Positions 3,441-47,100 of a DNA stretch of 64,000 nt are shown piece by piece (the first letter of the stretch is position 1; every line of letters begins with the position of its first letter). The notes under the pieces are model-generated. The model ran no database searches, was not told where the DNA came from, and saw only the letters and a program-made list of their open reading frames with translations. A program made the position numbers and the translations under genes. This DNA is from a virus (taxonomy: Duplodnaviria > Heunggongvirae > Uroviricota > Caudoviricetes): the IMG/VR virus record IMGVR_UViG_3300031873_001030. The stretch is one strand, 5' to 3'.

Positions 3441-4010
3441 ATGAAGACAATAGAAGTAGAAATAAAAGGTCCTATTTTGCTGATGCATAATCCGAAGTCT
3501 ATGCTAGACCCACAGACTACTGGAACGAAATCATCAACTGCGAAATATGACTATAATGTCGAAGCAGAGAAGTCTGCTTACAAGACGAAAAAAAATGAAT
3601 TATATATTCCTGCCCAAGCTATGTTCAGTTCCACATTGAATGGAGCTTCTTTCAAGAAAGTAGGAAAATATACTGCCAAGAGCATTATAGCTGGCAATAT
3701 GAGAATAGAGCCAGAAGAAATCCTGATTCTAGATAGCAAAGGGAAAGTCATGACAAAATATGAGATAGACTTGAGGACTGTGGTTATTGCTCAAGGTAAG
3801 AAAAGAAACCGAATAGTCAGGGCAAGAGCTATGGTAAAGGATTGGAGTGCTAGATTCAGAATAGTCTATAACGACCAATTCATAGGCGACCCTGCTATAA
3901 TAGAAGATTGCTTGAAGGATGCAGGTTCAAGGATAGGTCTGTTGGAATACAGACCACAGACAAGTGGAAGCTACGGAACATTTGAGATAGTGAAATTCAA
4001 GGTGATATAA
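3441..4010 (+). CDS. hypothetical protein, translationally coupled to the ParB-like gene
   Basis: ORF track; AAGGTGA upstream; stop abuts ATG 4011. Confidence 0.65.
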   Translation: MKTIEVEIKGPILLMHNPKSMLDPQTTGTKSSTAKYDYNVEAEKSAYKTKKNELYIPAQAMFSSTLNGASFKKVGKYTAKSIIAGNMRIEPEEILILDSKGKVMTKYEIDLRTVVIAQGKKRNRIVRARAMVKDWSARFRIVYNDQFIGDPAIIEDCLKDAGSRIGLLEYRPQTSGSYGTFEIVKFKVI

Positions 4011-4895
4011 ATGGCACTATGGGATAGGGAAGAAAGAAAGCATACGGAAAATAAAGTATTGCCACTCAAGGATATAGTATTTGATGAGAACATATATCCA
4101 AGACAAAGTTCATGGTGGCAAACTTCGTATAAATATGCCGAAGAGATGAAAGCAGGCGCAAGGTTTCCTCCAATCACAGTAGGTTTTGTGAATGGAAGAT
4201 ACGTGCTTGTGGATGGGAAGCATAGGAATGACGCACTTCTGATGAATAAGGAGACACATACATCAGTAGTAGTTCTCTATGGTTACACTTTGGATGAACT
4301 CTATATTGAAGCTGTAAAACTCAATAGGGCTCACGGTGTAGGACTTACTTCTTTCGACAAGGTCAAGATAATCAAGAGACTTGAAGATATGAAATATTCA
4401 TTGGGAGACATAGCCACGATAGTCCAGATTCCTTTGGGAAGCATAGAGAAATTTGTAGCACAGAGGATTACGTTAAATCCATTAGGACAAGTCACAGTAT
4501 TGAAATCTCCTCTCAAGTTTATGGCAGGAGGAACTATAACGATGACTGACGAAGAGCAAGATACTCTAAGTGTGAGGAGTGAGATAAGTCTGGTAAATCA
4601 GATGACACAGATATTCTCAAATCCGAAGATGCTAAGGGTTGATATAACATTCGTTGATGCTATCGAGAAGCTTTACCAACTGATTCAAGATTTCCTCAAA
4701 GAACAGAAAATTTTGAATGGAGCTGGAAATACAATAGAAGAAGTTCCAAAAGAGAAAATATACAAGAAAAGAGGAAGACCTAAGAAAATCAAGACTGAAA
4801 GTGAGACTTCAGAACCAAAGAAAAAGGGAAGACCTAAAGGTTCTAAGAACAAGCTTAAAGAACTTGATGTCAGTAACGTCAAAGAACAAGCATAA
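4011..4895 (+). CDS. ParB/Srx-fold (ParB-like nuclease domain) protein with two C-terminal AT-hooks
   Basis: N-terminal LPLKDIVFDENIYPR ... RFPPITV ... YVLVDGKHR matches the ParB N-domain pattern (DGxHR). C-terminal KKRGRPKK and KKKGRPKGSK are AT-hook cores. Confidence 0.7.
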   Translation: MALWDREERKHTENKVLPLKDIVFDENIYPRQSSWWQTSYKYAEEMKAGARFPPITVGFVNGRYVLVDGKHRNDALLMNKETHTSVVVLYGYTLDELYIEAVKLNRAHGVGLTSFDKVKIIKRLEDMKYSLGDIATIVQIPLGSIEKFVAQRITLNPLGQVTVLKSPLKFMAGGTITMTDEEQDTLSVRSEISLVNQMTQIFSNPKMLRVDITFVDAIEKLYQLIQDFLKEQKILNGAGNTIEEVPKEKIYKKRGRPKKIKTESETSEPKKKGRPKGSKNKLKELDVSNVKEQA

Positions 4896-4944
4896 ATAGT
4901 TAATCAGTTAGACTTTATTTGGAAAGAATGAAGCAGGGTTTAGT

Positions 4945-5015
4945 GACAACGAACCTCAGAGATAGAACTTACTGATTCTTAGAATCAGTTGGTTCTTACT
5001 GCGAGGTTCGTTGTC
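4945..5015 (+). repeat. 71-nt imperfect-hairpin element, copy 1 (candidate structured RNA or DNA cruciform site)
   Basis: Outer 13-bp stem GACAACGAACCTC/GAGGTTCGTTGTC, inner stems AGAAC/GTTCT and ACTGATTCT/AGAATCAGT; 50 nt after the ParB-like stop. Confidence 0.8.
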
Positions 5016-5431
5016 ATAGTTCCTTCCCTCTTCATACTTTCTTTAATATTAGGGAATTTATAAAAACTGTAGGTTTTTATTATGAGATAAGGTTCGGTTG
5101 GGTCAGTTGGGGTGGGTTCCGTTCCGATATGGTATGGTAAGATTATATTTATTGGACGTGGTAGGATAGGGTAGGATGCGATATGGTATTGTTACTTGTT
5201 CCGATATGGTTCGGTGATTTGGGGTTAGGTTAGGTCTGTTCCGATAGGGCAAGGTATGGTATTTTATTTATTCGATACGGTTCGGTTTGGTGGGTTTGGG
5301 TTAGGCAAGATAAGATAGGGTTAGACAAGGTATCTTACTTTTGTATCCGATTGGGTAAGGTCTGGTAGTATTCGGTCCGTTGTGGTTAGGCACGATATGG
5401 TGTGGTAAGGTTTGACATTTATAGTCAGTCA

Positions 5432-5491
5432 TTAACATATGATAAAGAGTTGGACCCAGTGCACGGGTGGCATTCCATTAACATATGTTAA
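5432..5491. repeat. palindrome pair (5432-5445 TTAACATATGATAA with 1 mismatch; 5478-5491 perfect) enclosing a 32-bp GC-rich insert
   Basis: Read directly; insert agagttggacccagtgcacgggtggcattcca is 19/32 G+C. Confidence 0.9.
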
Positions 5492-5525
5492 TGAGAAAAG
5501 ATAAGAAATAATGTAAAATGATAAT

Positions 5526-5798
5526 ATGAAGAAGATAAAGGAAGAATTTTGCTTTCGCAGGAATGATACTAGAACTTCATATGATATGCAGAAAGGCTAT
5601 CTGATATATGGCAAGATTGATGACATTTATAATATCATCACTTACAATCTATTTGAGATGTGGAATACTACAAAGTGTTTTAAAAGGTTTAGGAAATTGT
5701 TCGTCACTACTTCAAATCACGAATGGATACATTATCTTGTTCCAGATATAAAAGATGGAAGTCTGATGAAGAAGATTGAAAATTGGTTTAACTGGTAA
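5526..5798 (+). CDS. hypothetical protein embedded in the GGTNN tract
   Basis: ORF track; bracketed by a 42-bp perfect direct repeat that contains the palindrome. Confidence 0.45.
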   Translation: MKKIKEEFCFRRNDTRTSYDMQKGYLIYGKIDDIYNIITYNLFEMWNTTKCFKRFRKLFVTTSNHEWIHYLVPDIKDGSLMKKIENWFNW

Positions 5799-5822
5799 AA
5801 TGTATCGTTAACCAAAATTCCA

Positions 5823-5836
5823 TTAACATATGTTAA
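5823..5836. repeat. TTAACATATGTTAA palindrome (within the 42-bp direct repeat 5817-5858 = 5472-5513)
   Basis: Read directly. Confidence 0.95.
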
Positions 5837-5881
5837 TGAGAAAAGATAAGAAATAATGAAAATCAAAAAGAGGTAAAAAAA

Positions 5882-5989
5882 ATGAGATACTATTGCCGAG
5901 AACATAAGGAAAGTTTTGAGACTACTGTCTGCTTTCTTCAACATGTTCTTAAGGAACACCATAGCATATTTGACATCACAAGTGAATAG
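5882..5989 (+). CDS. 35-aa Cys/His-containing peptide
   Basis: ATG 5882 lies 45 nt after the palindrome; translation MRYYCREHKESFETTVCFLQHVLKEHHSIFDITSE; below the track cutoff. Confidence 0.3.
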   Translation: MRYYCREHKESFETTVCFLQHVLKEHHSIFDITSE

Positions 5990-6151
5990 ATATTTATGTG
6001 ATGAGGTGGGGTCAAGTCAGGTCGGTTCTGGTTGCGATACTGACCTTATCACACCAAACCTCACCTTACCAGGGTTCGATAAGTTGTGATTTGGTAGGAT
6101 AGGGTAAAGTTATTTATATTTGAAACACGTAATTATATGTCAAGGAAGTCT

Positions 6152-6223
6152 GACAACAAACCTCAGAGTTGGAACTTTCTGGTTCTAAAAAATCACTTAG
6201 TTCTTTCTGCGAGGTTTGTTGTC
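6152..6223 (+). repeat. imperfect-hairpin element, copy 2
   Basis: Outer stem GACAACAAACCTC/GAGGTTTGTTGTC. Confidence 0.8.
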
Positions 6224-6949
6224 TTTGTATCGACTTTATCATTCGGTCAGGTAAGGCGGGTTCAGGTGGGGTATAGTTTCGGTTCGGTATGGTAGTTTGA
6301 CATTTATACGATACGGTAAGGTGAGGTTTGGAAGATAGTCTTTATGATTCGGTAAGGTGGGGTCAGTTGCGATTGTGTGAGGTTTGATTTGGTTTGGTCT
6401 GATTTGGTAGTTTGAGGCAAGGTAAAGTTAATTCCTTTTATATGATAAGGTATGGTCTAATTCGGTCTGGTTTGGTTGGATGGGCTACGTTCCGATAAGG
6501 TTCGGTATGGTAATATGACACTTATACGATTAGGTTCGGTCAGGTAAGGTTGGGTCAAATGCGATTAGGTAAGATGAGGTTCGGTCAGATACGGCAAGAT
6601 ATGGTATAATATTTATTCGGTTAGGTGAGGTCAGTTTAGGTCTGGTCTGATGTAGTTTGGCATGGTAGTATAACACTTATCGGTTTGGTTCGGTATGATG
6701 CGATATGGTCAGATTCGGTTTGATATGGTAGTATGACACTTATTGGTCAGGTTTAGTAGAATATGGTAAGGTTCGGTTCGATACGGTGGGATATGGTCAG
6801 TTAGGATTTGGAAAAGGAGAGAATAGTTTCAAGAAAGAATCAGCCCTTGGGTGAGTCCCTTGAAATGAAAAATGCCGCACCAGAGATGGTGATATTAGGT
6901 AAACTAATATAAATCAAGGTTCGAACCGTCCGTTAGGCAACGGTTCTCT

Positions 6950-7020
6950 GACAACAAACCTCAGAGTTAGAACTTACTGGTTCTTGAAATCAGTTGGTTC
7001 TTTCTGCGAGGTTTGTTGTC
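6950..7020 (+). repeat. imperfect-hairpin element, copy 3
   Basis: Outer stem GACAACAAACCTC/GAGGTTTGTTGTC; preceded by hairpin GAACCGT..ACGGTTC (6923-6946). Confidence 0.8.
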
Positions 7021-7201
7021 TTCCTCCAAAAAATTACTTATTCGATAGGGTAAGGATAGGTATGCTATGTCAGGGTCAGGTTTGGTTAGGTTTGATATGG
7101 TATGGTAAGGTAATTTAATACTTTTGCTTTGGTGCAATATGGTAATATTCGGTAGGGTATAATTCGGTGGGTTCCGTTAAGGTATGGTAAGGATTATATT
7201 T

Positions 7202-7321
7202 ATGAAATACGTATATAGGAATAGAGATGATGAAAGGGAACTTAAATTTGAAGTTCCAGATAGTATGTCAATAGCTGAAGCATTTGAATTTGCAGAAAGG
7301 AAATGCGCCAGCATGGAGTGA
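7202..7321 (+). CDS. 39-aa hypothetical peptide inside the GGTNN tract
   Basis: Only non-repetitive, protein-like composition in this part of the tract (MKYVYRNRDDERELKFEVPDSMSIAEAFEFAERKCASME); weak. Confidence 0.3.
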   Translation: MKYVYRNRDDERELKFEVPDSMSIAEAFEFAERKCASME

Positions 7322-7672
7322 TTATAATTTTTGGTCTGGTAGGGTGCGATTAGGTACGATTGGGTTTGGTCAGATAGGATATGATATGGACTATTGTAAT
7401 TTTCGGTTAGGTGCGGTTAGGTCTGGTTTGGTGCGTTCGAGGTGTGGTCAGATAGGATATGGAACTTTCATTCGTACTTTTCGGTAGGGCATTATTCGGT
7501 CCGATATGGTCTGGTCAATTCCGCTCTGGTTCGGTTAGATAGTGTATGGTGATATATGTTAAGTCGTGGTTTGGTTCGGTCTGGTAGAATGAGGTTTATC
7601 TTTTTTGATAGGCTATCGTTCGGTCTGGTGAGGTATGGTTCGGTAGGGTTCGGCAAGGTTTAATCCTTTTAG

Positions 7673-7787
7673 GAAAGGGTCTTTGATTCATTCCCTTTCT
7701 ATAAAAGATTTATCCCACGTCTTCGGGATTTATCCCTTCTTTCAGAAGGGATTTATATATCACCGAATCTCGTTTTAAACGAGATTC
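7673..7787 (+). promoter_or_regulatory. cluster of four hairpins (7673-7699; 7707-7758 double ATCCC/GGGAT unit; 7765-7787 GAATCTCGTTT/AAACGAGATTC)
   Basis: Inverted repeats read directly. The GATTTATCCC-N6-8-GGGATTTAT unit recurs at 25703 and 43483. Confidence 0.6.
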
Positions 7788-7963
7788 ACAAAGAACTTGT
7801 GGTCGGGTCTGATACGGCAAGGTGTGATACGGTAAGATAAGATTGGGTTATGGTCTGGCAAGGAACTTTTTACTTATATGGTTTGGCACGGTCCATTCCG
7901 TTGCGTTTAGGTGTGGTAAGGCTTGGTATGGTTACGATTTATTTGGCGTAACATATGTAATAC

Positions 7964-8632
7964 GTGTATTTAAGGTTTCTTATGTATAGTTATGCTATGG
8001 CAAAAGATGAGAATAGGGAAATAAACGTCAGTGGAAAGACAATTGCCTTAATCCTTATGGTAATCATTACAATATTTTCAGTAGGCAGTCTGATAGTAGC
8101 CATAAATGATAAAGGTCAAGCTTCCTCAGATTCAACTAGCTGGCAGAACAAATATACAACTTGCAGTTCTGGATTAAGCTCTTGCAACTCTCAACTAAGC
8201 TCTTCTCAATCAAGCTCCTCTTCATGCGCTTCACAACTCAATACTTGCAATAGCAACCTTGATTATTATCAGAACACAGGAGGAACTTGCAGTTCAGATT
8301 TGAGCAATTGCAATGCCAATTATAATACCTGCAATGCCAATCTTAACAATTATAAGACACTTTATTCTAATTGCGGTGGCAGTCTGACTAACTATCAGAC
8401 ACTTTATTCTAACTGCCAGTCAAGCTATTCTACTTGTAATTCTAATTTCAATACTCTGACTTCCACTTACAATTCTCTGAAGTCAAATTCTGATGTCATG
8501 GCACAGAATTATGCCAGTATGAAATGCTGTCCAAGCTGGCCATCCACCAAATACAGCTATTACTATACAAGCAATGGAAATGTCTATTGCACTGATACAG
8601 CAACAGCAAGCACAAAACTTACAGGATGCTAA
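7964..8632 (+). CDS. membrane-anchored Ser/Asn/Cys-rich low-complexity protein
   Basis: ORF track; TM helix TIALILMVIITIFSVGSLIVAI followed by recurring C-N-S/A-N-(L/Y/F) motifs; start may be ATG 7982. Confidence 0.6.
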   Translation: MYLRFLMYSYAMAKDENREINVSGKTIALILMVIITIFSVGSLIVAINDKGQASSDSTSWQNKYTTCSSGLSSCNSQLSSSQSSSSSCASQLNTCNSNLDYYQNTGGTCSSDLSNCNANYNTCNANLNNYKTLYSNCGGSLTNYQTLYSNCQSSYSTCNSNFNTLTSTYNSLKSNSDVMAQNYASMKCCPSWPSTKYSYYYTSNGNVYCTDTATASTKLTGC

Positions 8633-10649: not shown

Positions 10650-11186
10650 GTGACATCCAAAAAAACACTCAGGCTATTCGAGAGGGGCAATGTGATTCAT
10701 CAATTCATATCAAAAGTCCTATTGAGTTCGGAAGCAGTAAGGGAAGTAAAAAGTGAACAGTCACTAAGGATACCAAGGATATCTGACAACCCTAAGGAAA
10801 ATTTTCTAATCACAGGCAGATTTGATAACTTTATTGAATTAGTAGAAGGGGAAAATGTGCTGATTGAAGTGAAGACGACAAGAAATCTGGATTATCAGAA
10901 ATCAGCTTCATTGCATCATATCATGCAACTGACACCATATCTTTTATACAAGCAAGGTCTGAAAGGTGCCATATTGTATATAGACATGAACTTCCAGACA
11001 AAAGTATTTGAAGTGATTTATGACCCTAAATTGATGCTGGAAATAATGAAAAGGGCAGAAAATTTGCATATGTATTTAGTGGAAGACAAAATGCCGCTAC
11101 CAGAAGCCAAAGACATACCAGAAAAAAATTGGGAATGCAAATACATATGCAATTATAAAGAGGAATGTGATAAATGTGTTACCTAA
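10650..11186 (+). CDS. Cas4-like / RecB-family PD-(D/E)xK nuclease with Fe-S cysteines; the real N-terminus lies upstream of the track start
   Basis: GNVIH, GRFDNF...LIEVKT (D..ExK), QLTPY (QxxxY) and C-terminal CKYICNYKEEC. The conserved N-terminal SEIPYCLR with the fourth Cys is in frame upstream (10587-10610), where no canonical start exists. Confidence 0.7.
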   Translation: MTSKKTLRLFERGNVIHQFISKVLLSSEAVREVKSEQSLRIPRISDNPKENFLITGRFDNFIELVEGENVLIEVKTTRNLDYQKSASLHHIMQLTPYLLYKQGLKGAILYIDMNFQTKVFEVIYDPKLMLEIMKRAENLHMYLVEDKMPLPEAKDIPEKNWECKYICNYKEECDKCVT

Positions 11187-15984: not shown

Positions 15985-16499
15985 CTAAGCTTTCGTATCT
16001 TGACTTCGATGAATGTCTCGGCATCGAAAAACTTTCCAAACTTCAGAGGAATCCATATTATCTTCCCTCTTTTTCCCATCTGACCCACCTTACATCTAAA
16101 ACTTATTTCATTTATCATAAAATATATTAGTTTCATTAGAATATAAAGTTTTAAATTCAATTATAATACAGCAAATAGAAGTGACAATTATACCAAACCC
16201 AAGTTGAGTCACTGAAATGAGGATTTATAGTTCAATCCAATCTTTACAATTTCCACAGAAGTCTCCACCACTCTTACAGCTTCCATCATAAAAATTTTTA
16301 CAACTACTGCAGCATCTCAAGTTTTAACCTATTTTTAGCTTCTTCTTCCAACTTACATATTTCATTTATCGTATACATCACAATAACCTCCACATCTTCA
16401 ATCTGACAGCGAGTTTATACATATTATGCCAAAACCAACTGCCTTCATTCTTTCTCGCAAACATATATATTCCAACATATGTTATCAATGACATAATTG

Positions 16500-16775
16500 T
16501 AAACCACAGATTACCAGACCATACCCGAACCTATAAGACCACATCACACCTGAGCGAAAAGTGTTAACCATACCACATCAGACTTTATCATGCCTTACCA
16601 GTCCTTAACATATCGTAACTTACCACAACGTAGCATAAATGACAATCCATATCTTACCACACACCAACATATCTTACCAAAACCCACCCTAACCCATCTA
16701 ACCCAATCATAAATATAATCCCTATCTTACCAAATCCCATCACAACGGACCCTACCAAATCAGACCCCGTTAAAT
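16500..16775 (-). repeat. GGTNN pentanucleotide tract on the minus strand (NNACC on +)
   Basis: 5-nt reading ttacc agacc atacc ... accaa aaccc accct aaccc; lies downstream (sense) of minus-strand gene 16869..17171. Confidence 0.8.
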
Positions 16776-24479: not shown

Positions 24480-24527
24480 TGTCAAATTAGAAATGCAATA
24501 CGATTGTTAACAAGAAAGTTAACAAAG

Positions 24528-24598
24528 TCTCACCTGCCAGAATTGCACCAGCATCTACGAGGCTACAGCTCGTTGTTCTACTGTTGAACTAAGGCGAG
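24528..24598 (-). tRNA. tRNA-Tyr (GTA)
   Basis: Hand fold CTCGCCT-TA-GTTC-AACAGTA-GAAC-A-ACGAG-CTGTAGC-CTCGT-AGAT-GCTGG-TGCAATT-CTGGC-AGGTGAG-A; C1-G72 as in archaeal/eukaryal tRNA-Tyr. Confidence 0.75.
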
Positions 24599-24601
24599 TT
24601 G

Positions 24602-24674
24602 TGGGGATGCTGAGATTTGAACTCAGATTATTCGCTTCCAGAGCGAAGGTTCTAACAAGTTATACTACATCCCC
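24602..24674 (-). tRNA. tRNA-Pro (TGG)
   Basis: Acceptor GGGGATG/CATCCCC, anticodon arm TTCGC-TCTGGAA-GCGAA, T arm CTGAG-TTCAAAT-CTCAG. Confidence 0.85.
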
Positions 24675-24677
24675 AAG

Positions 24678-24751
24678 GGAGAATAGAGGGATTTGAACCC
24701 TCTCTAACAAGTTCACAGCTTGACGTGCTCGCCTACTACACCATATTCTCC
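24678..24751 (-). tRNA. tRNA-His (GTG) with genomically encoded G-1
   Basis: G-GAGAATA...TATTCTC-C, D stem GTGT/GCAC, anticodon loop CTGTGAA, T arm GAGGG-TTCAAAT-CCCTC. Confidence 0.8.
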
Positions 24752-25212
24752 ATTTTATTATGTTCTTCTCTATGGCAATTTGCACATAGAAGTTTGCATT
24801 TCTGCAATTCTTTTCGTATCACCTCGAGACTATTATGCCATATTCTGGATATTTCATATTTCTTTTCTCCGTTCATATGATGAAATTCAAGTGCTGCGAA
24901 ACATTTGTTATATCCACATTTTTGACATTTACCTCCAAATTCCATTTTCATAATTTTTGTTTTTTCTTGGTTTTTACGCTTTTGTGCTATATACCACAAA
25001 TGTCTCTGAGGGAGAGATGATTTTTGTTTATGTTGTTTTATATATTTTCTCATATATTCTCTATGATATTTTTTCCTTTTTTCTCTGTTTTCAGGGTTTG
25101 ACAACCAAATTTTCCATCGTTCTTTTTCTTGCTCACGGTGTGATTTTCTATATAATCTATTTATTTCACACAATCGTTCTTTGTTTTTTTCATAATATTT
25201 TTTACTGGTCAT
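24736..25212 (-). CDS. HNH endonuclease with N-terminal basic Tyr/Lys-rich region, inserted in the tRNA cluster
   Basis: CQKCGY...LEFHH...N...CANCHREEH; its 3' end overlaps tRNA-His by 16 nt. Confidence 0.8.
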   Translation of the reverse strand: MTSKKYYEKNKERLCEINRLYRKSHREQEKERWKIWLSNPENREKRKKYHREYMRKYIKQHKQKSSLPQRHLWYIAQKRKNQEKTKIMKMEFGGKCQKCGYNKCFAALEFHHMNGEKKYEISRIWHNSLEVIRKELQKCKLLCANCHREEHNKMENMV

Positions 25213-25255
25213 ATAATGTAATTGTTTAATACCATTTATATTTGTTGTTGAACTA

Positions 25256-25330
25256 CGCTCTGGGCAAGACTCGAACTTGCAATTTCTCCGTTAACAGCGG
25301 AGCGCTTGTACCTGTTTAAGCTGCCAGAGC
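25256..25330 (-). tRNA. tRNA-Asn (GTT)
   Basis: GCTCTGG-CA-GCTT-AAACAGGTAC-AAGC-G-CTCCG-CTGTTAA-CGGAG-AAATT-GCAAG-TTCGAGT-CTTGC-CCAGAGC-G. Confidence 0.85.
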
Positions 25331-25333
25331 AAG

Positions 25334-25437
25334 TACTCCCCGAATGATTCGAACATTCGTCTCTTGGTTTCTCCAAGTTTCAGATTCTTGTTGAAATTAT
25401 CAAAGCCAAGCATCTTTGTCCACTGGACGAGGGGAGT
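25334..25437 (-). tRNA. tRNA-Gln (TTG) with a ~31-nt intron after position 37
   Basis: Acceptor ACTCCCC/GGGGAGT (A1-U72); anticodon stem CTTGG/CCAAG enclosing CTTTGA-[intron]-A; T arm GAATG-TTCGAAT-CATTC. Confidence 0.65.
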
Positions 25438-25466
25438 ATATTGATTGTAGTTCTTTTTAAAAACTA

Positions 25467-25538
25467 TGGACACAAGCGGGAATCGAACTCGCATCTCTTT
25501 CTTGCAAGGGAAGTATCCTACCATTAAACGATTGGCCC
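25467..25538 (-). ncRNA. degenerate tRNA-like element (Ala TGC-like anticodon loop CTTGCAA) with mismatches in the acceptor, anticodon and T stems
   Basis: GGGCCAA...TTGTGTCCA pairs at only 5 of 7 acceptor positions (2 mismatches). Anticodon stem CTTCC/GAAAG and T stem GCGAG/CCCGC each carry an A-C mismatch. Confidence 0.35.
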
Positions 25539-25702: not shown

Positions 25703-25729
25703 GATTTATCCCTCTAACGGGATTTATAT
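25703..25729. promoter_or_regulatory. GATTTATCCC-tctaac-GGGATTTATAT hairpin unit overlapping the XPF stop codon
   Basis: Read directly; same unit as 7707-7758 and 43483-43508. Confidence 0.5.
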
Positions 25730-26358
25730 TTTTCAGTCAATATCTTCTTGATTCTAGTTGAAAGTACGTCTCCTATTCCCTTTGCTTTCTGCAAGTCTTC
25801 CTCACTGGCTAAAAGTACTTTTTCAACAGAACCGAGATTTTCCAACAGCCTTTTGGATATTGTCGAATTTACTCCAGGAATGGAGGAGACTATCTGCTCT
25901 TGTATCTTTGACATTTCTGTCGGCACCTTTTCAAATTTGTATGATACAGTTCTTTTGCTTTCAACTTGCTCTTTTTTCGCAAGATGATATATCATTCTGG
26001 CAGTGTCCATTTTGTCCTTAGTATTTACTATGGAAATGTTGAATCTGATGATTAGACTTGCCATAGCGGCTTTCACAATGTTCACATCTATGCGTTCATT
26101 TGGAAATCCTTCTATGATTATGATGACAATCTTAAAATTGTCCTTCATCCTAGTTGTCTGTTCAAATAACCTTCCATCAAATATTGACGCTACAAAATCT
26201 TGATATGTCTTCCTTTCAATCACTGTCCTATCCGAAACTATGAAGTCTCCAACTTCCAAGAAAGATTCATTCAAGTTGACGTTGGCAAAATTTCTCAGAA
26301 AGTATATCAGCTCTTTTTCCCTGGAATCTGCTGATATCGTGATTTTAAATTCTTCCAT
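25714..26358 (-). CDS. short-form XPF/Hef-type ERCC4 nuclease with C-terminal (HhH)2
   Basis: DSRE...VGDFIV...VIERKTYQDFVASIFDGRLFEQ...IIIIEG; C-terminal IPGVNSTISKRLLENLGS...AKGIGDVLSTRI. Confidence 0.85.
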   Translation of the reverse strand: MEEFKITISADSREKELIYFLRNFANVNLNESFLEVGDFIVSDRTVIERKTYQDFVASIFDGRLFEQTTRMKDNFKIVIIIIEGFPNERIDVNIVKAAMASLIIRFNISIVNTKDKMDTARMIYHLAKKEQVESKRTVSYKFEKVPTEMSKIQEQIVSSIPGVNSTISKRLLENLGSVEKVLLASEEDLQKAKGIGDVLSTRIKKILTEKYKSR

Positions 26359-33905: not shown

Positions 33906-34622
33906 ATGATAGAAGATGAAATTATAAGCGGGAGAATTTCTATTGGTCGGGTTGGTATTTATCTTAATGCTAAGACTAAAGGTGGTTACAATATAGGATT
34001 TAATTTTCTTAATAGTCCAGAGCTGAGGACTGCGGGCGTGTGCAATATCACGAAGGACCAGATGTTTATAATGTTTGCTGATTTTGACAATATAGGTTAT
34101 GAAAAACTTAAAGACCAGTTGGATTTCATAAATAGGAATCATGATGTGAGCAATTTTCTTGTTCTTACGACTGGAAAGAATCGATATCATGTGATAAGTT
34201 TTGAAAAATTCTGGAAACAGGAATTAGTTGACATATTGAAGAATACTTTCTGCGATTATACGTATAAAAGTTTTGTTCCGTTGAAAGTTGACAAGGGCTG
34301 GATACTTAGGGTGACTGAAAAGAGGGATTTGGATAATAATGTTGTGAAGGACAGGCCTGAATATGTAGAATCGTTTTCTTATTCTGAAGTCCCTAAGAGG
34401 AGATTGTCGCGTGCTCACGTAGAATTTTTTTCGAGAATGTATCCTGAATTCAGGAAATTTGCAGAGGAGAAGCTTGATAAAAATTATTGGGATGAGTTTA
34501 CTGTGATTCAGCTGCTGAAATATGGGACAAGCCATGAGAATCTTATTGCAAAATTTGACTTGAAGGATTTGATAGATTCCAAGAAGCTTGAAATAGTGTG
34601 GAAGGACAATATATTTGATTAG
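33906..34622 (+). CDS. archaeo-eukaryotic primase (AEP)/PrimPol-like replication protein (tentative)
   Basis: FIMFADFDNI (hhhDxD) and LTTGKNRYHVISF (sGxxxH) occur in the order and spacing of AEP motifs I and II; motif III is unclear. Confidence 0.5.
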   Translation: MIEDEIISGRISIGRVGIYLNAKTKGGYNIGFNFLNSPELRTAGVCNITKDQMFIMFADFDNIGYEKLKDQLDFINRNHDVSNFLVLTTGKNRYHVISFEKFWKQELVDILKNTFCDYTYKSFVPLKVDKGWILRVTEKRDLDNNVVKDRPEYVESFSYSEVPKRRLSRAHVEFFSRMYPEFRKFAEEKLDKNYWDEFTVIQLLKYGTSHENLIAKFDLKDLIDSKKLEIVWKDNIFD

Positions 34623-34623
34623 T

Positions 34624-34694
34624 GACAATGAACCTCAGAGTAGGAACCAACTGGAAAGTGGAATCAGCAAGTCATAACTGCGAGGTTCATTGTC
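34624..34694 (+). repeat. imperfect-hairpin element, copy 4
   Basis: Outer stem GACAATGAACCTC/GAGGTTCATTGTC; starts 2 nt after the stop of 33906..34622. Confidence 0.75.
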
Positions 34695-34739: not shown

Positions 34740-35402
34740 ATGACCGATATCGATGCCGAAAAAGTTTGGAGCTCTCTTAGAAGGGAAAAGACATTGGATT
34801 TGTTAGGGCTTACTGACAGTGAATTGAGGGATATTGTTGATTCGCTTATTGATGAGGCTGGATTTCCTGCGACTAATTTGGGAGATGAAGCTAGGGAATT
34901 GCTGACAGATGAGGCTAGAAAGGAAGCTGGTCCTGAGGAGGAAGTTGAAAGAGAAAAAGAGATAGAGGAAGCAGAAGAAGTCACTGAAGAAGAGCTTGAA
35001 GCTGCTAGGGAAGGAAGAGCTGAAGAGAGAAGGGAAGAGCGTCTTGAACGTCTTGGAGAAAGGAGACCAAGAAGGGAAAGAGGAGTTGGAATTGAGCCTA
35101 TGGAATTGCCTAAAGTGAAGATTCCAGAAGAGAGGATTCCAGAAATAAGAGTTCCTCCTGGAGTTGAACTTCCAGTTATTCGGGAATTTGAAACTCCATC
35201 TAAGCGCATGGAAAGGGTCATAGGTGAAGTTGAGGGTGGTGTAGAGAAGAGAATAAAAGAGACTGATGAAAAGACAAAAGAGATTAGTAAAGGTCCAGTT
35301 AGTTTTGGCCAGAGAGTTGCCGATACTGCAAGAAATGTGAGGGATACTGTTATTAATGTTTCAAAGCGTATAATTGATAGAATAAGGCAATTAGGTAGAT
35401 AA
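34740..35402 (+). CDS. Glu/Arg-rich acidic protein
   Basis: ORF track; preferred over the Ser-rich antisense ORF 34721..35221. Confidence 0.55.
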   Translation: MTDIDAEKVWSSLRREKTLDLLGLTDSELRDIVDSLIDEAGFPATNLGDEARELLTDEARKEAGPEEEVEREKEIEEAEEVTEEELEAAREGRAEERREERLERLGERRPRRERGVGIEPMELPKVKIPEERIPEIRVPPGVELPVIREFETPSKRMERVIGEVEGGVEKRIKETDEKTKEISKGPVSFGQRVADTARNVRDTVINVSKRIIDRIRQLGR

Positions 35403-35408
35403 TCTTTA

Positions 35409-35490
35409 TGTGATGAGTTAGGGTCCGATGGGGTAAGTTAGGATATTGTGAGGTCGGATGTGGTATGTTTGGTGAGGTAAGGTATGGTCC
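35409..35490 (+). repeat. short GGTNN tract filling the intergenic gap
   Basis: gttag ggtcc gatgg ggtaa gttag ... ggtga ggtaa ggtat ggtcc gatat ggttt. Confidence 0.7.
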
Positions 35491-35502
35491 GATATGGTTT
35501 AA

Positions 35503-35982
35503 GTGATTGATATGAAAATTGAAGTAAGGATGCACCATCTTAGCGAACTTAAGAGAAAGTTGCTTGATTCTGATATGAATCATACCAAGTATATTTTACT
35601 GGATGAGATGAGAGCGACGATAGATAAGTTGAAGGGTGACAGGAATCTCATGTTCAAGATTGTTGCTATGATGTCGAAAGTGACTACTGCTTCTCGGTTG
35701 ACTACTGAAGGGATGATAATGGCTTTGGAAAATATGGTTTTGTTTGATATAATGCAATATGATATTTTACAGGATGGTGATGTGACTGTTTTGAATCTGA
35801 ATGTTGATGATAATTATTTTGAGATTTTTAACAAGATTCCTCTGATTGGCAGGTTTATCTCAACTCTTTCTGGAGGAAGAAAAAGATATTTGGAAGAGGT
35901 GAGAAAAACTATAGAGGAGGATTATACAAAAGATTATACACTGAAAATAATCATGGATGATACAAAGGAGGTTCATGAATAA
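35503..35982 (+). CDS. hypothetical protein
   Basis: ORF track. Confidence 0.5.
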   Translation: MIDMKIEVRMHHLSELKRKLLDSDMNHTKYILLDEMRATIDKLKGDRNLMFKIVAMMSKVTTASRLTTEGMIMALENMVLFDIMQYDILQDGDVTVLNLNVDDNYFEIFNKIPLIGRFISTLSGGRKRYLEEVRKTIEEDYTKDYTLKIIMDDTKEVHE

Positions 35983-41671: not shown

Positions 41672-41696
41672 ACTTTGATTACCAATTATTATGACA

Positions 41697-41745
41697 GCGT
41701 ATGGTTAGGTCTGGTTGGATGTGATAAGATAAGGTTTGGTAAGAT
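41697..41745 (+). repeat. short GGTNN tract in the intergenic gap
   Basis: gcgtatggttaggtctggttggatgtgataagataaggtttggtaagat. Confidence 0.65.
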
Positions 41746-41763
41746 AATAAAGAGGTAATGTAA

Positions 41764-42054: not shown

Positions 42055-42583
42055 AATCTTGAATGTCGGTTGTGGTAATGATACCTATGGAACGGATTTT
42101 ATAGACATGTATCCGATGAGAAAGGAAGTAAGAAGATGCGATATTGAGAATGAGAAGCTTCCATTCAAGGATAATACTTTTGACGAAGTGTATTCTGAAA
42201 ACTTTTTTGAGCATCTGAAAAATCCAAGCAATGTGTTGAAGGAAATGAGAAGAGTGTTGAAGCATGGAGGCAAGCTTGTAGTCATAACAGATAATGCTGG
42301 ATTCTGGGCATTTCATATTGCTGGTGCTACTACTCACTATGGAGGATATGAGAAGAAAAGTTTTGGAAAATTGGACAGGCATTTCGGATTGTTCACCCCT
42401 TGGCATCTGAAAAATCATTTTGAAGATATCGGACTGAAAAATATCATGTATAAATATAGGTTATTGAGAAAGAAAAATCCTTATTGGTATGTGAGAATAA
42501 TTTCAAATGTCATAAGTGTTGTGACTAAGAGAATGGGACAATCGCAGATAAGGATTGAAGGTATTAAACAATTTACCAAATAA
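42044..42583 (+). CDS. class I SAM-dependent methyltransferase
   Basis: ILNVGCGND, LPFKDNTFDEVYSENFFEHL, LKHGGKLVVITDN. Confidence 0.8.
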   Translation: MVARILNVGCGNDTYGTDFIDMYPMRKEVRRCDIENEKLPFKDNTFDEVYSENFFEHLKNPSNVLKEMRRVLKHGGKLVVITDNAGFWAFHIAGATTHYGGYEKKSFGKLDRHFGLFTPWHLKNHFEDIGLKNIMYKYRLLRKKNPYWYVRIISNVISVVTKRMGQSQIRIEGIKQFTK

Positions 42584-43328
42584 TTTGGTACAATTCAATT
42601 GTTCTATTTGGAAAACCAAAAGAATTTGATGTGTTTACTTCTTCATCATTTTGAGGTTCGATGAAAATTCTACCTTTGTCTGTAGTGTTGAATATTATTA
42701 TTGCATGCCCTATTGTGTAATTTTTCCATTCAATATATACTAAGCCAATACTGATGTGTTGTTTAAGAGAATTTAATATGATGTCTCGACTAAAGTCCCA
42801 ACAATTATAAGTTTCATTATATGTGTTTTCATTTGTCTTATCAGTAGCTATGAAATTTTTCATATCATTATATGTTGGGTCTTGAGAATTTTCATAGAAA
42901 AGGTAGTCATTTAAATTCCACGTATTACGATAGAATGTTGTCAAGTTAGTTGTGTTAAAGACTGATATATTTGTTATGTTCAATACTGTCAAATTAGTTG
43001 TGTTAAAGACTGATATATTTGTTATGTTCAATACTGTCAAATTAGTTGTGTTAAAGACTGATATATTTGTTATGTTCAATGTTGTCAATTCTGTTATGTT
43101 CGTTACGTTTAATACTGTGATATTAGTTATGTTAAGAATTTTGATGTTTGATATCGAACTGTTGACTAAATTTATCTTATCGTCTAAAAGAGTTTTTACA
43201 CTGCTTAGTTCATTTTGTGTGGAAGTTAGACTTTTTTGTATTTCAGATGTTTTTTGAATCTGAAAAATTATTGTAATCAAGGTTGCAATAAAAATTGTGG
43301 AAAAGACGAAGATTGTCTTTGAATCCAT
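42573..43328 (-). CDS. membrane-anchored protein: NIT/NTT 16-aa repeats plus a C-terminal Cys-His domain (possible thiol-peptidase/transglutaminase-like core)
   Basis: TM helix near the N-terminus; NITNISVFNTTNLTVL x3; YNCWDF...IGHAIIIF...IEPQNDE. Confidence 0.65.
   Translation of the reverse strand: MDSKTIFVFSTIFIATLITIIFQIQKTSEIQKSLTSTQNELSSVKTLLDDKINLVNSSISNIKILNITNITVLNVTNITELTTLNITNISVFNTTNLTVLNITNISVFNTTNLTVLNITNISVFNTTNLTTFYRNTWNLNDYLFYENSQDPTYNDMKNFIATDKTNENTYNETYNCWDFSRDIILNSLKQHISIGLVYIEWKNYTIGHAIIIFNTTDKGRIFIEPQNDEEVNTSNSFGFPNRTIELYQIIW
42939..43082 (-). repeat. 48-bp tandem repeat x3 (near perfect), with degenerate copies to ~43140, inside CDS 42573..43328
   Basis: Units start at 42939, 42987 and 43035. 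Confidence 0.9.
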
Positions 43329-43919: not shown

Positions 43920-44162
43920 TGTGAGTTGAAGAAAACATGTCACATGGGGAAAAAAGACAGAGAAGGAAAAAAACTAAGAAGCAAAGGCAAAGAAAAAGGA
44001 TGAAAGAGAGGAGAGACAAAGGGAGGTAATCTATGAATGAGATTGACATCCATGAAATGAATTATTTCATCGACATGGTGTCACCAGCTTATCAAGATGA
44101 GTTGTGAAAAAAATGAGATGCGAAAACAATAGGGGTAATTGCCCAATTTGGAGGGTTTTGTA

Positions 44163-47100
44163 ATGGCAAATAGTATTTTTGGTCAGCCTCAGCCAAATCC
44201 ATTTTCACCAGGCACGACATTGCCGTCATCAAATGTAAGTGTGACGCCAAGTATGCCCATTGGTGGATTGACTGTAGGATTAGGAGGAAGTGGAAATGTT
44301 TATTATGGAGGAGCGCCTGCTGGAGGAGTTGGTCAGACTACAACAACAACTGGAGGTCCTGCGATTTATATTCCTCCACAGGAGACTGCAAAAGCAGCAG
44401 AAAAAACAATAACTCCTGCTTTGATTCCTGAAATAAAACCGCCAACTTTAAAAGTTGGTGTCGGCGGATTGGTAGAAGGTTTGGGAAAATCTGGTAATGT
44501 ATATGAAGGTGGTGTGCTTGTTGGAGGTACTACTCCATGGGGTCCTGTAGTTAAGGAAGGTGGTGTCAGTTATGTCCCAACTGGAAGGACAGCTGAAACT
44601 GGAGAGACAATTTATTCTGGAACTCAGATAAGTTCTGCAACACCTATTGGAACTTTTGTGCCTGCAAAGAGAATTGAAATAACTCCACTGATGCCAGAGA
44701 TTAGTGTACAACCAGCTACAGCTGGTGCTATAGGTCTTTCATTTCCTGCAGGTGTTTTGTCTGTAAAATCTGGTCCAGTTGATGTGAGCAAACTTTCTCC
44801 AGATGTGCAGACTGCGTTGGGAAATCTTCAAGGAAAGGTGCAGGCTGAATATCCAGGATTCAAGCTTGCAAGTTGGACTCGTGAAGGTGATGAGCTGAAA
44901 GGTGTTTTGGAACCTGTGAAGTATGTCTCACTTGGAACTGATGTTACGAAAGCGACTGCTGCCATAAAGGATTTGGGATTGAAAGAAGGTGATTATAAAT
45001 TATATACTGGAATTGGTGGGGATTATCAGCTTGTGACTGATAAGGTGTCAAGCCAGAAATACGTGAGTGGTCTTCTTTCCAGTTATTCAGTTATTCCTAT
45101 AACTGGGTATGGACAGTATAGAGGGTCTGATGAGAGGATTGCATTGAAGTTTCTTGATAAGGAAGGTTATATCAAAGATGGTGTGATAAGCAAAGATGTT
45201 CAAGTGATAGGGGATATAGGAGTAGGAGGAACTGGTGCGATGATAGTTTTAAAGGGAAGTACAAAGAGTTCTGAAGATTTGTCAAAGACTTATTTTTCTT
45301 CCTTGACTGAAGTGCAGAAGGAAGATACTGCGATGGCAAGAGGAGAGTTGCAGATTGCTCAGGAAAAGGAACTTTTGAGACAACCTGGTATGAGTGTTGA
45401 AAAGGGAGCTGCTTGGTGGAATTTGAATGTTGGTCCTTATATGCTTTCTCCAAAGGACCCTCTTGGTCTGAGGAGTGCTTACATAGGAGTTGAAGGTTTG
45501 GTAAAAGGAACTCCTGTCAGTGTCATACAAAAGGACATAGAAGCTAGCAGGCTTTCTGCAGAACAGGAATTTCTTCAGAGAAAATATATGGGAGAGTCTT
45601 GGACTAAATCATTATGGGAAGCTCCTGCAACGCAGCCTTTGAAAGTTGCTGCTACTTGGTATGGCGGTGGTCTTTTGTTGGGAGGTGCTGCTGGAGTTCT
45701 TAAAACTGCTGAAGTAGGTGCTGGTATAGTATCAAAAGCTCCATGGCTTGCAACTACAGGAAGAGTTATTTCAACTGCTGGAAAAGTTGCGACAAGTGTT
45801 CCAGGACAAGTTGTAATTGGTTCAGGATTGTATGGTTTTACTGAAAGAGGAAATATAATGGCACTTGCAAAAGGAGGTGTTCCAAGAGACATTGTTCCTG
45901 GAATGATTTTTGACGCATCACAATTTGGATTTGCATATGGCGGTGCAGCTGCAGGTTTTCCAGTTGGTTATTCTAGAGGTGCTGGATTGGGTTATGCTTT
46001 CAAGCCTGGTGCATTGCCTCCATCTGAAACATTCGTGGCAGAAATCAGAGGGACTGGAGTATCTGGAATTCCAGGTGAATTGCAAGGATTGAAACTTGGG
46101 ACAAGGGTTGCTGGAGAAGTTCCAAAGGGTTTTGTTCCAAAAGGATTTAGTGAAGGTGTTCCTTATAGGGCGTTCTTGCAGGAGGGTGTGACAGTTACAA
46201 GAGCTGGAGAAGTTGTACCTTCTGGGACTTTGATGCCAACTATTGCAGAAATGGAACCTGCAAAACCTTTGATGCAGAGGATTGCCACTGCAATGACAAA
46301 GCCAAGCGAATTGATTCCTAAGATGCTTCCTGGAGGACCTACTGTTGAAGCTCCTTTTCTTGAATCAATCAGATATGGTGAAGAAAAGATAGCGAAAGGA
46401 GGAACTAAGGATATTTATGCTGCAGGTTATCAGCCAGGAACTACAATATGGTCAAGATTGAAGATGCCTGTTGAAGGAGCGCAGTATGGGATTGCTGAAG
46501 GTTTTAAGACTGTTACAGCTGAGAGTCCTCTTGCTTCGTTGACAGAAAAATACACTACAAGGATGGCATTGAGAGCTACTGGCGCTCCTATTGAAGCGGG
46601 AGATGTTGTTCCAGTGAAAATAATGGCAAAGACAGATTTTATTGTAAATGATGAAGGGATAGCTGCGATGTTGAAATCTGGAAAGAATCTTGCAGATATT
46701 GAAAAATTGAAAGGTGCTGATATAATACAGCGTGATATTGAATTTGCAGATAAGCCTGCTGTAAGGTACACTAGATTTATTGATAAGGAAACTGGAAAAT
46801 CTTTGGTTGTGTTGAAGCAGACTGCAGCTCCTACAATAGAGGAAGTTGTTGCTTTGGCAGAGGAAGGAAAGACTTTGATAAAACCTGAATATGTTGGAGG
46901 AAAGGTTGCAGGCTATAGTATAAGAGGTACTGAAATAGTTGGAGAGGGGAAAGAATTTGCAGGAGGAGTGCGTTATAAAAAGGGTGTTGAAGTAGTTGGT
47001 AAGGAACAAGTGACAGGAATAGCTCTTGATGATAAGACATTTAACGCATTGATGGATAAATATGGAAACAAGATATTGAGGGTTTCATCTCCGACAACTG

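Follow-up and report, generated by a model that had tools for sequence, protein, structure and literature searches.

The stretch of viral DNA analysed here, IMG/VR record IMGVR_UViG_3300031873_001030 (Caudoviricetes; 64,000 nt, hereafter the window), exhibits a tract of about 2.9 kb (5088-7945) built of a degenerate GGTNN pentanucleotide. Two abutting plus-strand genes lie immediately upstream of it. The first encodes a small Cas7-like RAMP protein, and the second, which begins directly after the stop codon of the first, a protein with a ParB/Srx domain and a helix-turn-helix (HTH). We have little doubt that, in this uncultured virus, the tract serves as the array of guide RNAs (vrRNAs) for a VIPR (Viral Interference Programmable Repeat) system. 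The genes and the putative arrays, delimited with a five-state cyclic hidden Markov model (HMM) and unit by unit, are listed below; ORF stands for open reading frame, and L001, L002 and so on are loci with which the window was compared.

3441..4010, plus strand: putative vipr gene, 189 aa, 21.3 kDa, pI 9.6, minimal Cas7-like RAMP
4011..4895, plus strand: vap-like accessory gene, 294 aa, ParB/Srx N-domain, HTH and two C-terminal AT-hooks (RGRPKK, KGRPKG)
5084..5423, plus strand: putative vrRNA sub-array A, 4-5 units (HMM segment 5083-5414 together with the unit table): 5084-5153, 5154-5273 (probably two units), 5274-5342, 5343-5423
5997..6121, plus strand: putative vrRNA sub-array B, short and degenerate (HMM plus-strand segments 5997-6033 and 6073-6111, minus-strand piece 6040-6072)
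6242..6811, plus strand: putative vrRNA sub-array C, 8-10 abutting units: 6245-6309, 6310-6443 (probably two), 6444-6527, 6528-6618, 6619-6681, 6682-6744, 6745-6811
7041..7203, plus strand: putative vrRNA sub-array D, 2-3 units, of which 7058-7107 is common to L001 and L009
7330..7671, plus strand: putative vrRNA sub-array E, about 5 units: 7333-7404, 7405-7473, 7480-7556, 7557-7606, 7607-7671
7798..7944, plus strand: putative vrRNA sub-array F, 2 units
16493..16768 (HMM 16503-16766), minus strand: distal putative vrRNA array, 4 intergenic units with a tail of the same type (GGGATTATATTTAT)
35409..35500, plus strand: vrRNA-like distal array of 1-2 units, flanked by ORFs 34740-35402 and 35503-35982
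41690..41751 (HMM 41699-41745), plus strand: a lone distal vrRNA-like unit preceding a gene start

The periodic tract is a genuine feature. Its autocorrelation at lag 5 (5088-7945) amounts to 0.30 for both G and GG and to 0.37 for GGT, corresponding to z-scores of 16.5 (G), 14.9 (GG) and 19.9 (GGT) against 300 dinucleotide-preserving shuffles, and is still present at lags 10-25 with a slow decay. When the entire 64 kb were scanned by sliding Fourier analysis, a period-5 power exceeding 12 proved to be essentially confined to 5.0-7.9 kb. The cyclic HMM recovers about 309 G-G/A-T-N-N pentamers on one strand (segments 5083-5414, 5997-6033, 6073-6111, 6242-6811, 7041-7192, 7330-7462, 7480-7661, 7798-7863 and 7877-7933); a short inverted pentamer piece is found at 6040-6072. 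The phase composition of these pentamers is G 0.84, G 0.59 or A 0.28, T 0.93, then two near-random G-poor positions. A count that does not use the HMM, anchored on GGT and taken over the next pentamer, gives G 0.86, G 0.72 with A 0.18, T 0.94, then again two near-random G-poor positions. The tract is strand-asymmetric, since GGT is enriched (60.5 per kb, compared with 10.9 per kb elsewhere) and ACC is not, and it contains no ORF of 100 aa or more.

An earlier reading of the letters alone (the sequence-only reading) had described a non-coding, strand-asymmetric GGTNN tract phase-locked at 5 nt, and all three properties stand, the lag-5 z-scores lying between 15 and 20. Its pentamer counts were exactly reproduced (GGT or GAT in 13 of 16 at 6531-6610; T in 13 of 13 and GG in 8 of 13 at 6446-6510), and the six blocks that it listed nearly coincide with the HMM segments. 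AT-rich blocks do lie at 6727, 6664 and 5411 as it had placed them; the two that it put at 6508 and 6297 were each off by one, being at 6509 and 6296. The three arrays elsewhere in the window (16503-16766 on the minus strand, 35409-35500 and 41699-41745) and the short inverted piece at 6040-6072 had escaped it.

An independent Logan assembly (L008, from SRR9651338) is 100% identical to the window over 4900-5501, and sub-array A is fully reproduced in it. As that contig ends at 5501, it independently confirms the first part of the tract only (the first 330 bp). Searches by similarity were uninformative: no GenBank phage matched the tract in blastn, the Rfam 15 matches of the window at gathering score are all tRNAs, with nothing better than E = 0.18 in 4850-8050, and the repeats are too degenerate for Tandem Repeats Finder to return more than fragments. 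The repeat survey revealed no CRISPR repeat-spacer array.

The array comprises about 20-25 units in 2.9 kb plus the three distal arrays. Nineteen units were delimited automatically, each with 4-18 matches to G[GA][TC] and each followed by a recurrent G-free tail. They are 38-134 nt long, the longest probably being doublets, with about 8-14 recognisable pentamers per unit. Most of them end in GGTATGGTA(A/G) followed by an AT-rich block of 8-16 nt without G (e.g. TATGACACTTAT, ATTATATTTATT, ACATTTATA), and the next unit starts 0-6 nt after the tail. Their predicted RNA structure is no stronger than that of shuffled sequences (z from -2.3 to +2.8). As the units abut, processing of a long precursor, or termination at the T-rich blocks, appears likelier than a separate promoter for every unit. 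About 25 nt upstream of the first unit there is a TTTATAAA box, as would be expected of a promoter of archaeal type. All three distal arrays are intergenic, and their G-rich strand is the sense strand of the flanking genes.

These features are those of a class of systems described only recently, so that the tract does not represent a new feature class. The sequence-only reading knew of no standard class for it, which was right until the preprints of April-June 2026 and is so no longer. VIPR systems are mostly virus-encoded and consist of an ancestral RAMP protein of about 20 kDa (Vipr), an accessory gene (vap) and vrRNAs (bioRxiv 10.64898/2026.04.26.720920). The vrRNAs contain 9-16 YNNGG repeats, in which GGY is conserved and NN hypervariable, and a 3' tail; NN pairs with double-stranded DNA under a rule that skips one nucleotide, the skipped base usually being the wobble base of a codon; the natural targets are found in competing phages, and self-targeting is absent (10.64898/2026.04.26.720920). 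Cryo-EM revealed one Vipr protomer per 5-nt repeat, with GGY sequestered in a flipped-out position, and an R-loop triplex at the target (10.64898/2026.04.26.720927). The systems that have been characterised come from Escherichia phage SUSP1 and a Pseudomonas fulva prophage (type II) (10.64898/2026.04.26.720920, 10.64898/2026.04.26.720927). At the present locus, the tandem GGYNN repeats with conserved GGY and variable NN are on the same strand as vipr, the vipr-vap pair has the form of a two-gene operon with a predicted DNA-interacting accessory, and the surroundings are not those of a CRISPR locus.

The NN positions were also read as a code. NN dinucleotides were taken from every in-phase run and searched under rules skipping 0-3 nucleotides; scans of sequence collections for targets used exact patterns only. 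Two guides could be decoded.

5086..5130, plus strand: guide 1, NN = AA TC TG CA GG GG CC CC AT
6444..6503, plus strand: guide 2, NN = AA AT CT TC CT TT TG GG AC CC AA TC

Read in the wobble-skipping frame, guides 1 and 2 decode to catalytic motifs IV and VIII, respectively, of C5-cytosine DNA methyltransferases, the most conserved that these enzymes have. With the 1-nt-skip rule applied, the antisense of guide 1 spells I-G-G-P-P-C-Q-D/E-F/L, i.e. motif IV (IGGPPCQDF). As a gapped pattern of 18 bases it has 94 exact matches in IMG/VR, all 94 of which encode (I/L)IGGPPCQ(D/E)F(S/T), with the skipped base at the third codon position. The antisense of guide 2 spells D/E-F/L-G-V-P-Q-N-R-E-R-I/M-F/L, i.e. 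motif VIII (DFGVPQNRERIF). It matches L036 at 22 of 24 positions within a 389-aa C5-methyltransferase ORF, again with the skipped base at the wobble position, and does so under the 1-nt-skip rule only. With 20 specified bases guide 2 has 69 exact IMG/VR matches, every one encoding FGVP(Q/H)(N/K)R(E/D)RI (22 of them match at 24 of 24), and with all 24 bases at least 120 exact matches in metagenomes. The two guides address different C5-methyltransferase subfamilies. Rules skipping 0 or 2 nucleotides yielded low-complexity near-matches only.

Four other guides (5198-5262, 6528-6597, 7483-7545 and 5349-5398), with 20 specified bases each, had no match in IMG/VR; one of these, scanned also in metagenomes, had none there, and the other guides found no match in 3 Mb of fetched loci. 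The restriction to exact patterns is part of the reason why most guides lack an identified target. No guide targets the window itself, and the window encodes no C5-methyltransferase motif. One perfect target (24 of 24) of guide 2 lies within a methyltransferase-like gene of L283 (Ga0315281_10003137), which is from the same metagenome as L011 (Ga0315281_10000317), a relative that carries guide 2. L283 is a candidate for a natural rival element in the same community.

Orthologous units were compared as well. In two alignments inspected by eye (window, L011 and L009; window, L001 and L009), NN appears to be kept while the GGY positions drift, and the NN code of guide 2 appears to be conserved in the L011 and L009 orthologs. 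Paralogous units show the reverse, and such conservation would be expected of a guide constrained by its target. The content of the array turns over rapidly: few units are held in common with relatives whose Vipr is 72-87% identical (unit 5343-5423, for instance, is common to L001 and L009).

The sequence-only reading had proposed a search of relatives for syntenic tracts, and tracts of the same kind were found. The order vipr, ParB-like gene, array is kept in L001, L002-L004, L005-L007, L009, L010 and L011-L012. A GGNNN tract begins just past the stop codon of every fetched ParB-like homolog, with the 189-aa gene upstream in all cases. The tract is about 700 bp long in L001 (75% identity) and reaches the contig end in L002-L004 (52% identity), and a 65-bp GGC-type array is present in L005-L007 (42% identity, 55% GC genome). 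L009, from an NCBI assembly and with a 3.7-kb tract, was found, like L011 and L012, through homologs of the 189-aa protein. In L005 (1852-3677), as well as in L006 and L007, two Vipr paralogs (166 and 169 aa) flank the ParB-like gene, and the single 65-bp array, of GGC type, lies in between.

Scanned with a profile, IMG/VR yielded 53 viral loci that encode relatives of the 189-aa protein. At 40 of the 53, the gene has an in-phase, same-strand GGY array no farther away than -800/+1500 nt (ggcaaggcctggcgaggcgaggcatggcggggcaagg in L044 is an example), and no opposite-strand array was seen at these loci in about 650 kb. GGC replaces GGT in high-GC genomes. Distant loci that we read directly have the array next to the RAMP gene, with no evident ParB-like gene beside it, the gene content there not having been systematically checked. 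The arrays thus track the RAMP gene across loci, so that the conserved partner of the array is the 189-aa protein and not the ParB-like one. A distant cultured relative, Pseudomonas phage LESphi2 (E = 2e-9), possesses, upstream of its homolog, three GGY arrays whose tails are structured.

The 189-aa protein is the only RAMP among the six-frame ORFs of the window and shows only 25-28% identity to the Viprs of cultured phages. The product of the second gene has a ParB/Srx+HTH fold and a weak match to a ParB-like PHROG (phrog_1033), and its few homologs carry PF02195. Such homologs are very rare (13 in 5.8 billion proteins), and a ParB-like profile search of genome contigs gave a single uninformative match. 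No ParA was found among the neighbouring genes, nor any MtrB/TRAP or CsrA homolog in the window. Pfam scans of the neighbouring genes detected no cas gene except a Cas4-like PD-(D/E)XK nuclease (10650-11186). ERCC4-HhH, Cas4-like and Hjc genes occur in the element and its relatives, giving the gene content an archaeal flavour.

Applied to the present locus, the published VIPR mechanism would run as follows. The array would be transcribed from its G-rich strand, and cleavage or termination of the RNA at the short AT-rich tails would yield units of about 55-90 nt, with 8-14 GGY-NN pentamers each. The 21-kDa RAMP (3441-4010) would polymerise on each unit, one protomer per pentamer, flipping out and sequestering each GGY and presenting the NN dinucleotides. 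These would pair with one strand of a double-stranded DNA target, every third base being skipped, and the resulting R-loop or triplex would block transcription. The ParB/Srx-HTH protein (4011-4895) would act as the DNA-interacting accessory (Vap). The likely purpose is to silence methyltransferase and other genes of competing mobile elements; their silencing might expose those elements to host restriction.

Other explanations of the tract were weighed against a VIPR array. The upstream ParB-like protein could bind and spread over GGTNN double-stranded DNA, partitioning or condensing the genome as in the omega heptads of pSM19035 or ParB-parS. A centromere- or telomere-like array of this sort was one proposal of the sequence-only reading, and the ParB form of the idea, prompted by the phrog_1033 match, was dropped after arrays had been seen beside the RAMP gene at distant loci with no evident ParB-like gene. 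The fold, HTH and AT-hooks of the adjacent gene product speak for it, as do the AT-rich blocks and the position of the tract directly downstream of the ParB-like gene in close relatives. We nevertheless regard it as very unlikely. ParABS systems have a ParA partner and palindromic or iterated double-stranded DNA sites; no ParA was found among the neighbouring genes here, and the repeats are direct, strand-polar 5-mers with variable NN. A strict polarity (no minus-strand arrays at the vipr loci) and a 5-bp same-strand repeat are unexpected for the site of an HTH dimer, ParB-like homologs are very rare, arrays stand beside the RAMP gene at the distant loci read directly, where no ParB-like gene is evident, NN rather than GGY appears conserved between orthologous units, and two units encode methyltransferase motifs. 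The 18-bp perfect palindrome CATTAACATATGTTAATG is the better parS candidate.

Alternatively, the GGU repeats might only sequester an oligomeric RNA-binding protein, as a titrating or attenuator RNA of TRAP or CsrB type without targeting information. This reading shares with VIPR the 5-nt register and the published binding of one repeat per Vipr protomer, and the many units lacking an identifiable target would be natural under it. Of the proposals of the sequence-only reading this one lies nearest to VIPR, the repeats matching the published GGY-repeat vrRNAs, but the sponge role gives way to NN as a guide to DNA targets: two units, read in frame, spell conserved motifs of a single enzyme family (69 and 94 exact matches, 0 for the controls), the NN code appears conserved across relatives, and the partner protein has a Cas7 fold. 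We consider pure titration highly improbable. For a replication origin, a packaging site or an R-loop or G-quadruplex region, in which the pentamers would make the non-template strand G-rich in the manner of immunoglobulin switch regions, one may note from the sequence that the sense strand is G-rich, that its GGNNN runs could form two-tetrad quadruplexes and that the AT-rich blocks could serve as unwinding elements. However, the cumulative GC-skew has no turning point at the tract, units of 65-120 bp of the same arrays accompany vipr in dozens of unrelated viral contigs, and the decoded guides would be left unexplained; the replication or packaging role offered by the sequence-only reading has found no support, and we hold this family of explanations to be extremely improbable. 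That the tract is an assembly artefact or a collapsed simple repeat is next to impossible. Contigs of L002-L004, L008 and L010 do end inside it, but the agreement with L008 over 4900-5501 is perfect, the units all differ in sequence, orthologous units occur in three other assemblies and full tracts are bridged in L001, L009 and L011. G-quadruplex or R-loop formation, positioning of archaeal histones, a ribosome or tRNA-3'-end sponge and Rho utilisation had also been entertained from the sequence; these ideas were set aside on finding the VIPR preprint.

Several points weigh against the identification as a VIPR array. Of about 25 guides, just 2 have an identified target, five scans for exact matches to others were empty, and the chance expectation for the collection scans is an empirical one, taken from four null guides. 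No single contig matches both decoded guides well. The assignment of the accessory gene is positional only, as a ParB-like Vap is nowhere mentioned in the preprints. A structured, pseudoknotted 3' tail characterises type II, whereas the tail here is AT-rich, short and without predicted structure. Degenerate pentamers (GAT, GTT, AAT) are numerous, and decay may have affected some units. Transcription of the array, its unit boundaries and its processing are predicted from the DNA.

The tract is interrupted by islands, insertions that probably do not belong to the system (an ORF of 90 aa between palindromes, hairpin copies and a hairpin cluster). The elements concerned are the following.

5424..5996, plus strand: non-repeat island with ORF 5526-5798 (90 aa, no family) and a short ORF
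4937-5015, 6149-6225, 6942-7020 and 34616-34694, no strand assigned: copies 1-4 of an imperfect hairpin element of 73-79 nt with conserved internal loops

ORF 5526-5798 is flanked by two identical 40-nt copies carrying the palindrome CATTAACATATGTTAATG; the segment 5424..5996 is missing from the orthologous L001 tract, which has palindromes only. The perfect palindrome (CA)TTAACATATGTTAA(TG) recurs intergenically, in its 18-bp form at 698, 5476 and 5821 and as a 14-bp core also at 988, 1575, 1613, 2314, 2359, 2425, 2491, 12361, 12398, 24416 and 24466; in L001 it lies at 6985, 7022, 7575 and 7668. It is probably the operator of some regulator, and for the ParB/HTH protein it is a better parS-like candidate than the pentamers. 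The hairpin element has a predicted RNA fold of -26 to -44 kcal/mol (z from -4.5 to -9.6) and belongs to no Rfam family. Its copy 1 lies within the loop of the terminator hairpin that follows the ParB-like gene; the orthologous L001 site lacks it. These features suggest a MITE-like mobile palindrome or a structured RNA, probably outside the VIPR system.

Elsewhere in the window, a 3752-aa protein (49389-60647) contains multiple DUF285 (BspA-like) repeats and internal 75-nt DNA repeats, and a 1340-aa ORF (44139-48161) has no family match; both may be adhesins or host-recognition proteins. A minus-strand tRNA cluster (24527-25538: Tyr, Pro, His, Asn and one found by Rfam alone at 25468-25538) adjoins the ERCC4+HhH nuclease gene (25714-26358). 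A 24-nt tandem repeat of about 7-9 copies (42934-43157) lies within the minus-strand ORF 42573-43328.

A raw-sequence feature visible by eye has thus led to a newly described class of RNA-guided systems, which can be recognised and decoded in silico from the periodicity, the adjacent RAMP fold and the NN-x code. To the preprints this locus adds the size and dispersal of the array, the ParB-like accessory gene and the targeting of methyltransferase motifs. The latter would be a natural example of targeting at the level of a protein family and independent of codon usage. It raises the idea that VIPR may let viruses strip rivals of protective DNA methylation. The locus also offers about 25 putative natural guides together with a compact effector of 21 kDa, its lineage being far removed from that of the characterised type II systems. 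We propose only tentatively, and with more doubt than confidence, that the clade represents a distinct VIPR architecture, with a ParB/Srx accessory (possibly clamp-like), kilobase-scale abutting arrays, minimal AT-rich tails, dispersed arrays, and guides aimed at peptide-level invariants. As these guides match the PC and QNRER catalytic motifs of C5 DNA methyltransferases, a single one fits hundreds of divergent genes whatever their codon usage. If so, the virus could switch off the anti-restriction methylation of any competitor, and the ParB-like protein would perhaps be loaded at the R-loop, spreading the silencing.

Among known systems, the TRAP-trp leader RNA complex (11 G/UAG triplets with 2-3-nt spacers) resembles the present one in having a triplet about every 5 nt and one subunit per repeat. 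However, the protein is unrelated and forms a closed ring instead of an open helical filament, the spacers, which hold the information here, are uninformative in TRAP RNA, and the outcome is attenuation and not DNA targeting. The backbone of Class 1 CRISPR-Cas effectors (Cas7, Csm3 or Cmr4 on crRNA) has a 6-nt register with one base sequestered, compared with 5 nt and three bases here. The guide information here is non-contiguous, in 5-nt repeats with 2 informative nucleotides each, and virus-encoded, and the window has no Cas1/Cas2 or repeat-spacer array; the locus likewise shows no contiguous-spacer array, adaptation genes or multi-subunit effector. ParB/KorB-type DNA clamps and the ParB-N domain of archaeal pNOB8 differ in that no ParA partner was found here among the neighbouring genes and the gene occupies the position of a VIPR accessory.

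The closest likeness is to VIPR itself: a single-RRM RAMP of about 20 kDa followed by an accessory gene and by tandem GGY-NN units on the sense strand, units of about 9-16 repeats, most of them with a recurrent putative 3' tail, a viral context without cas genes or a CRISPR array, and a 1-nt-skip code that, for the two decoded guides, fits coding sequences of other elements with the skip at the wobble position and no self-target. The differences are of scale and of parts. SUSP1 has four vrRNAs, whereas about 20-25 abutting units and three distal arrays are present here, and dispersed arrays are not described in the preprint text. The tail is short, unstructured and AT-rich instead of structured or pseudoknotted as in type II, and the accessory combines ParB/Srx, HTH and AT-hooks, a combination that the preprint text does not mention. 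Finally, the preprint reports satellite and prophage regulators as targets, whereas the guides decoded here address the catalytic motifs of C5 DNA methyltransferases.

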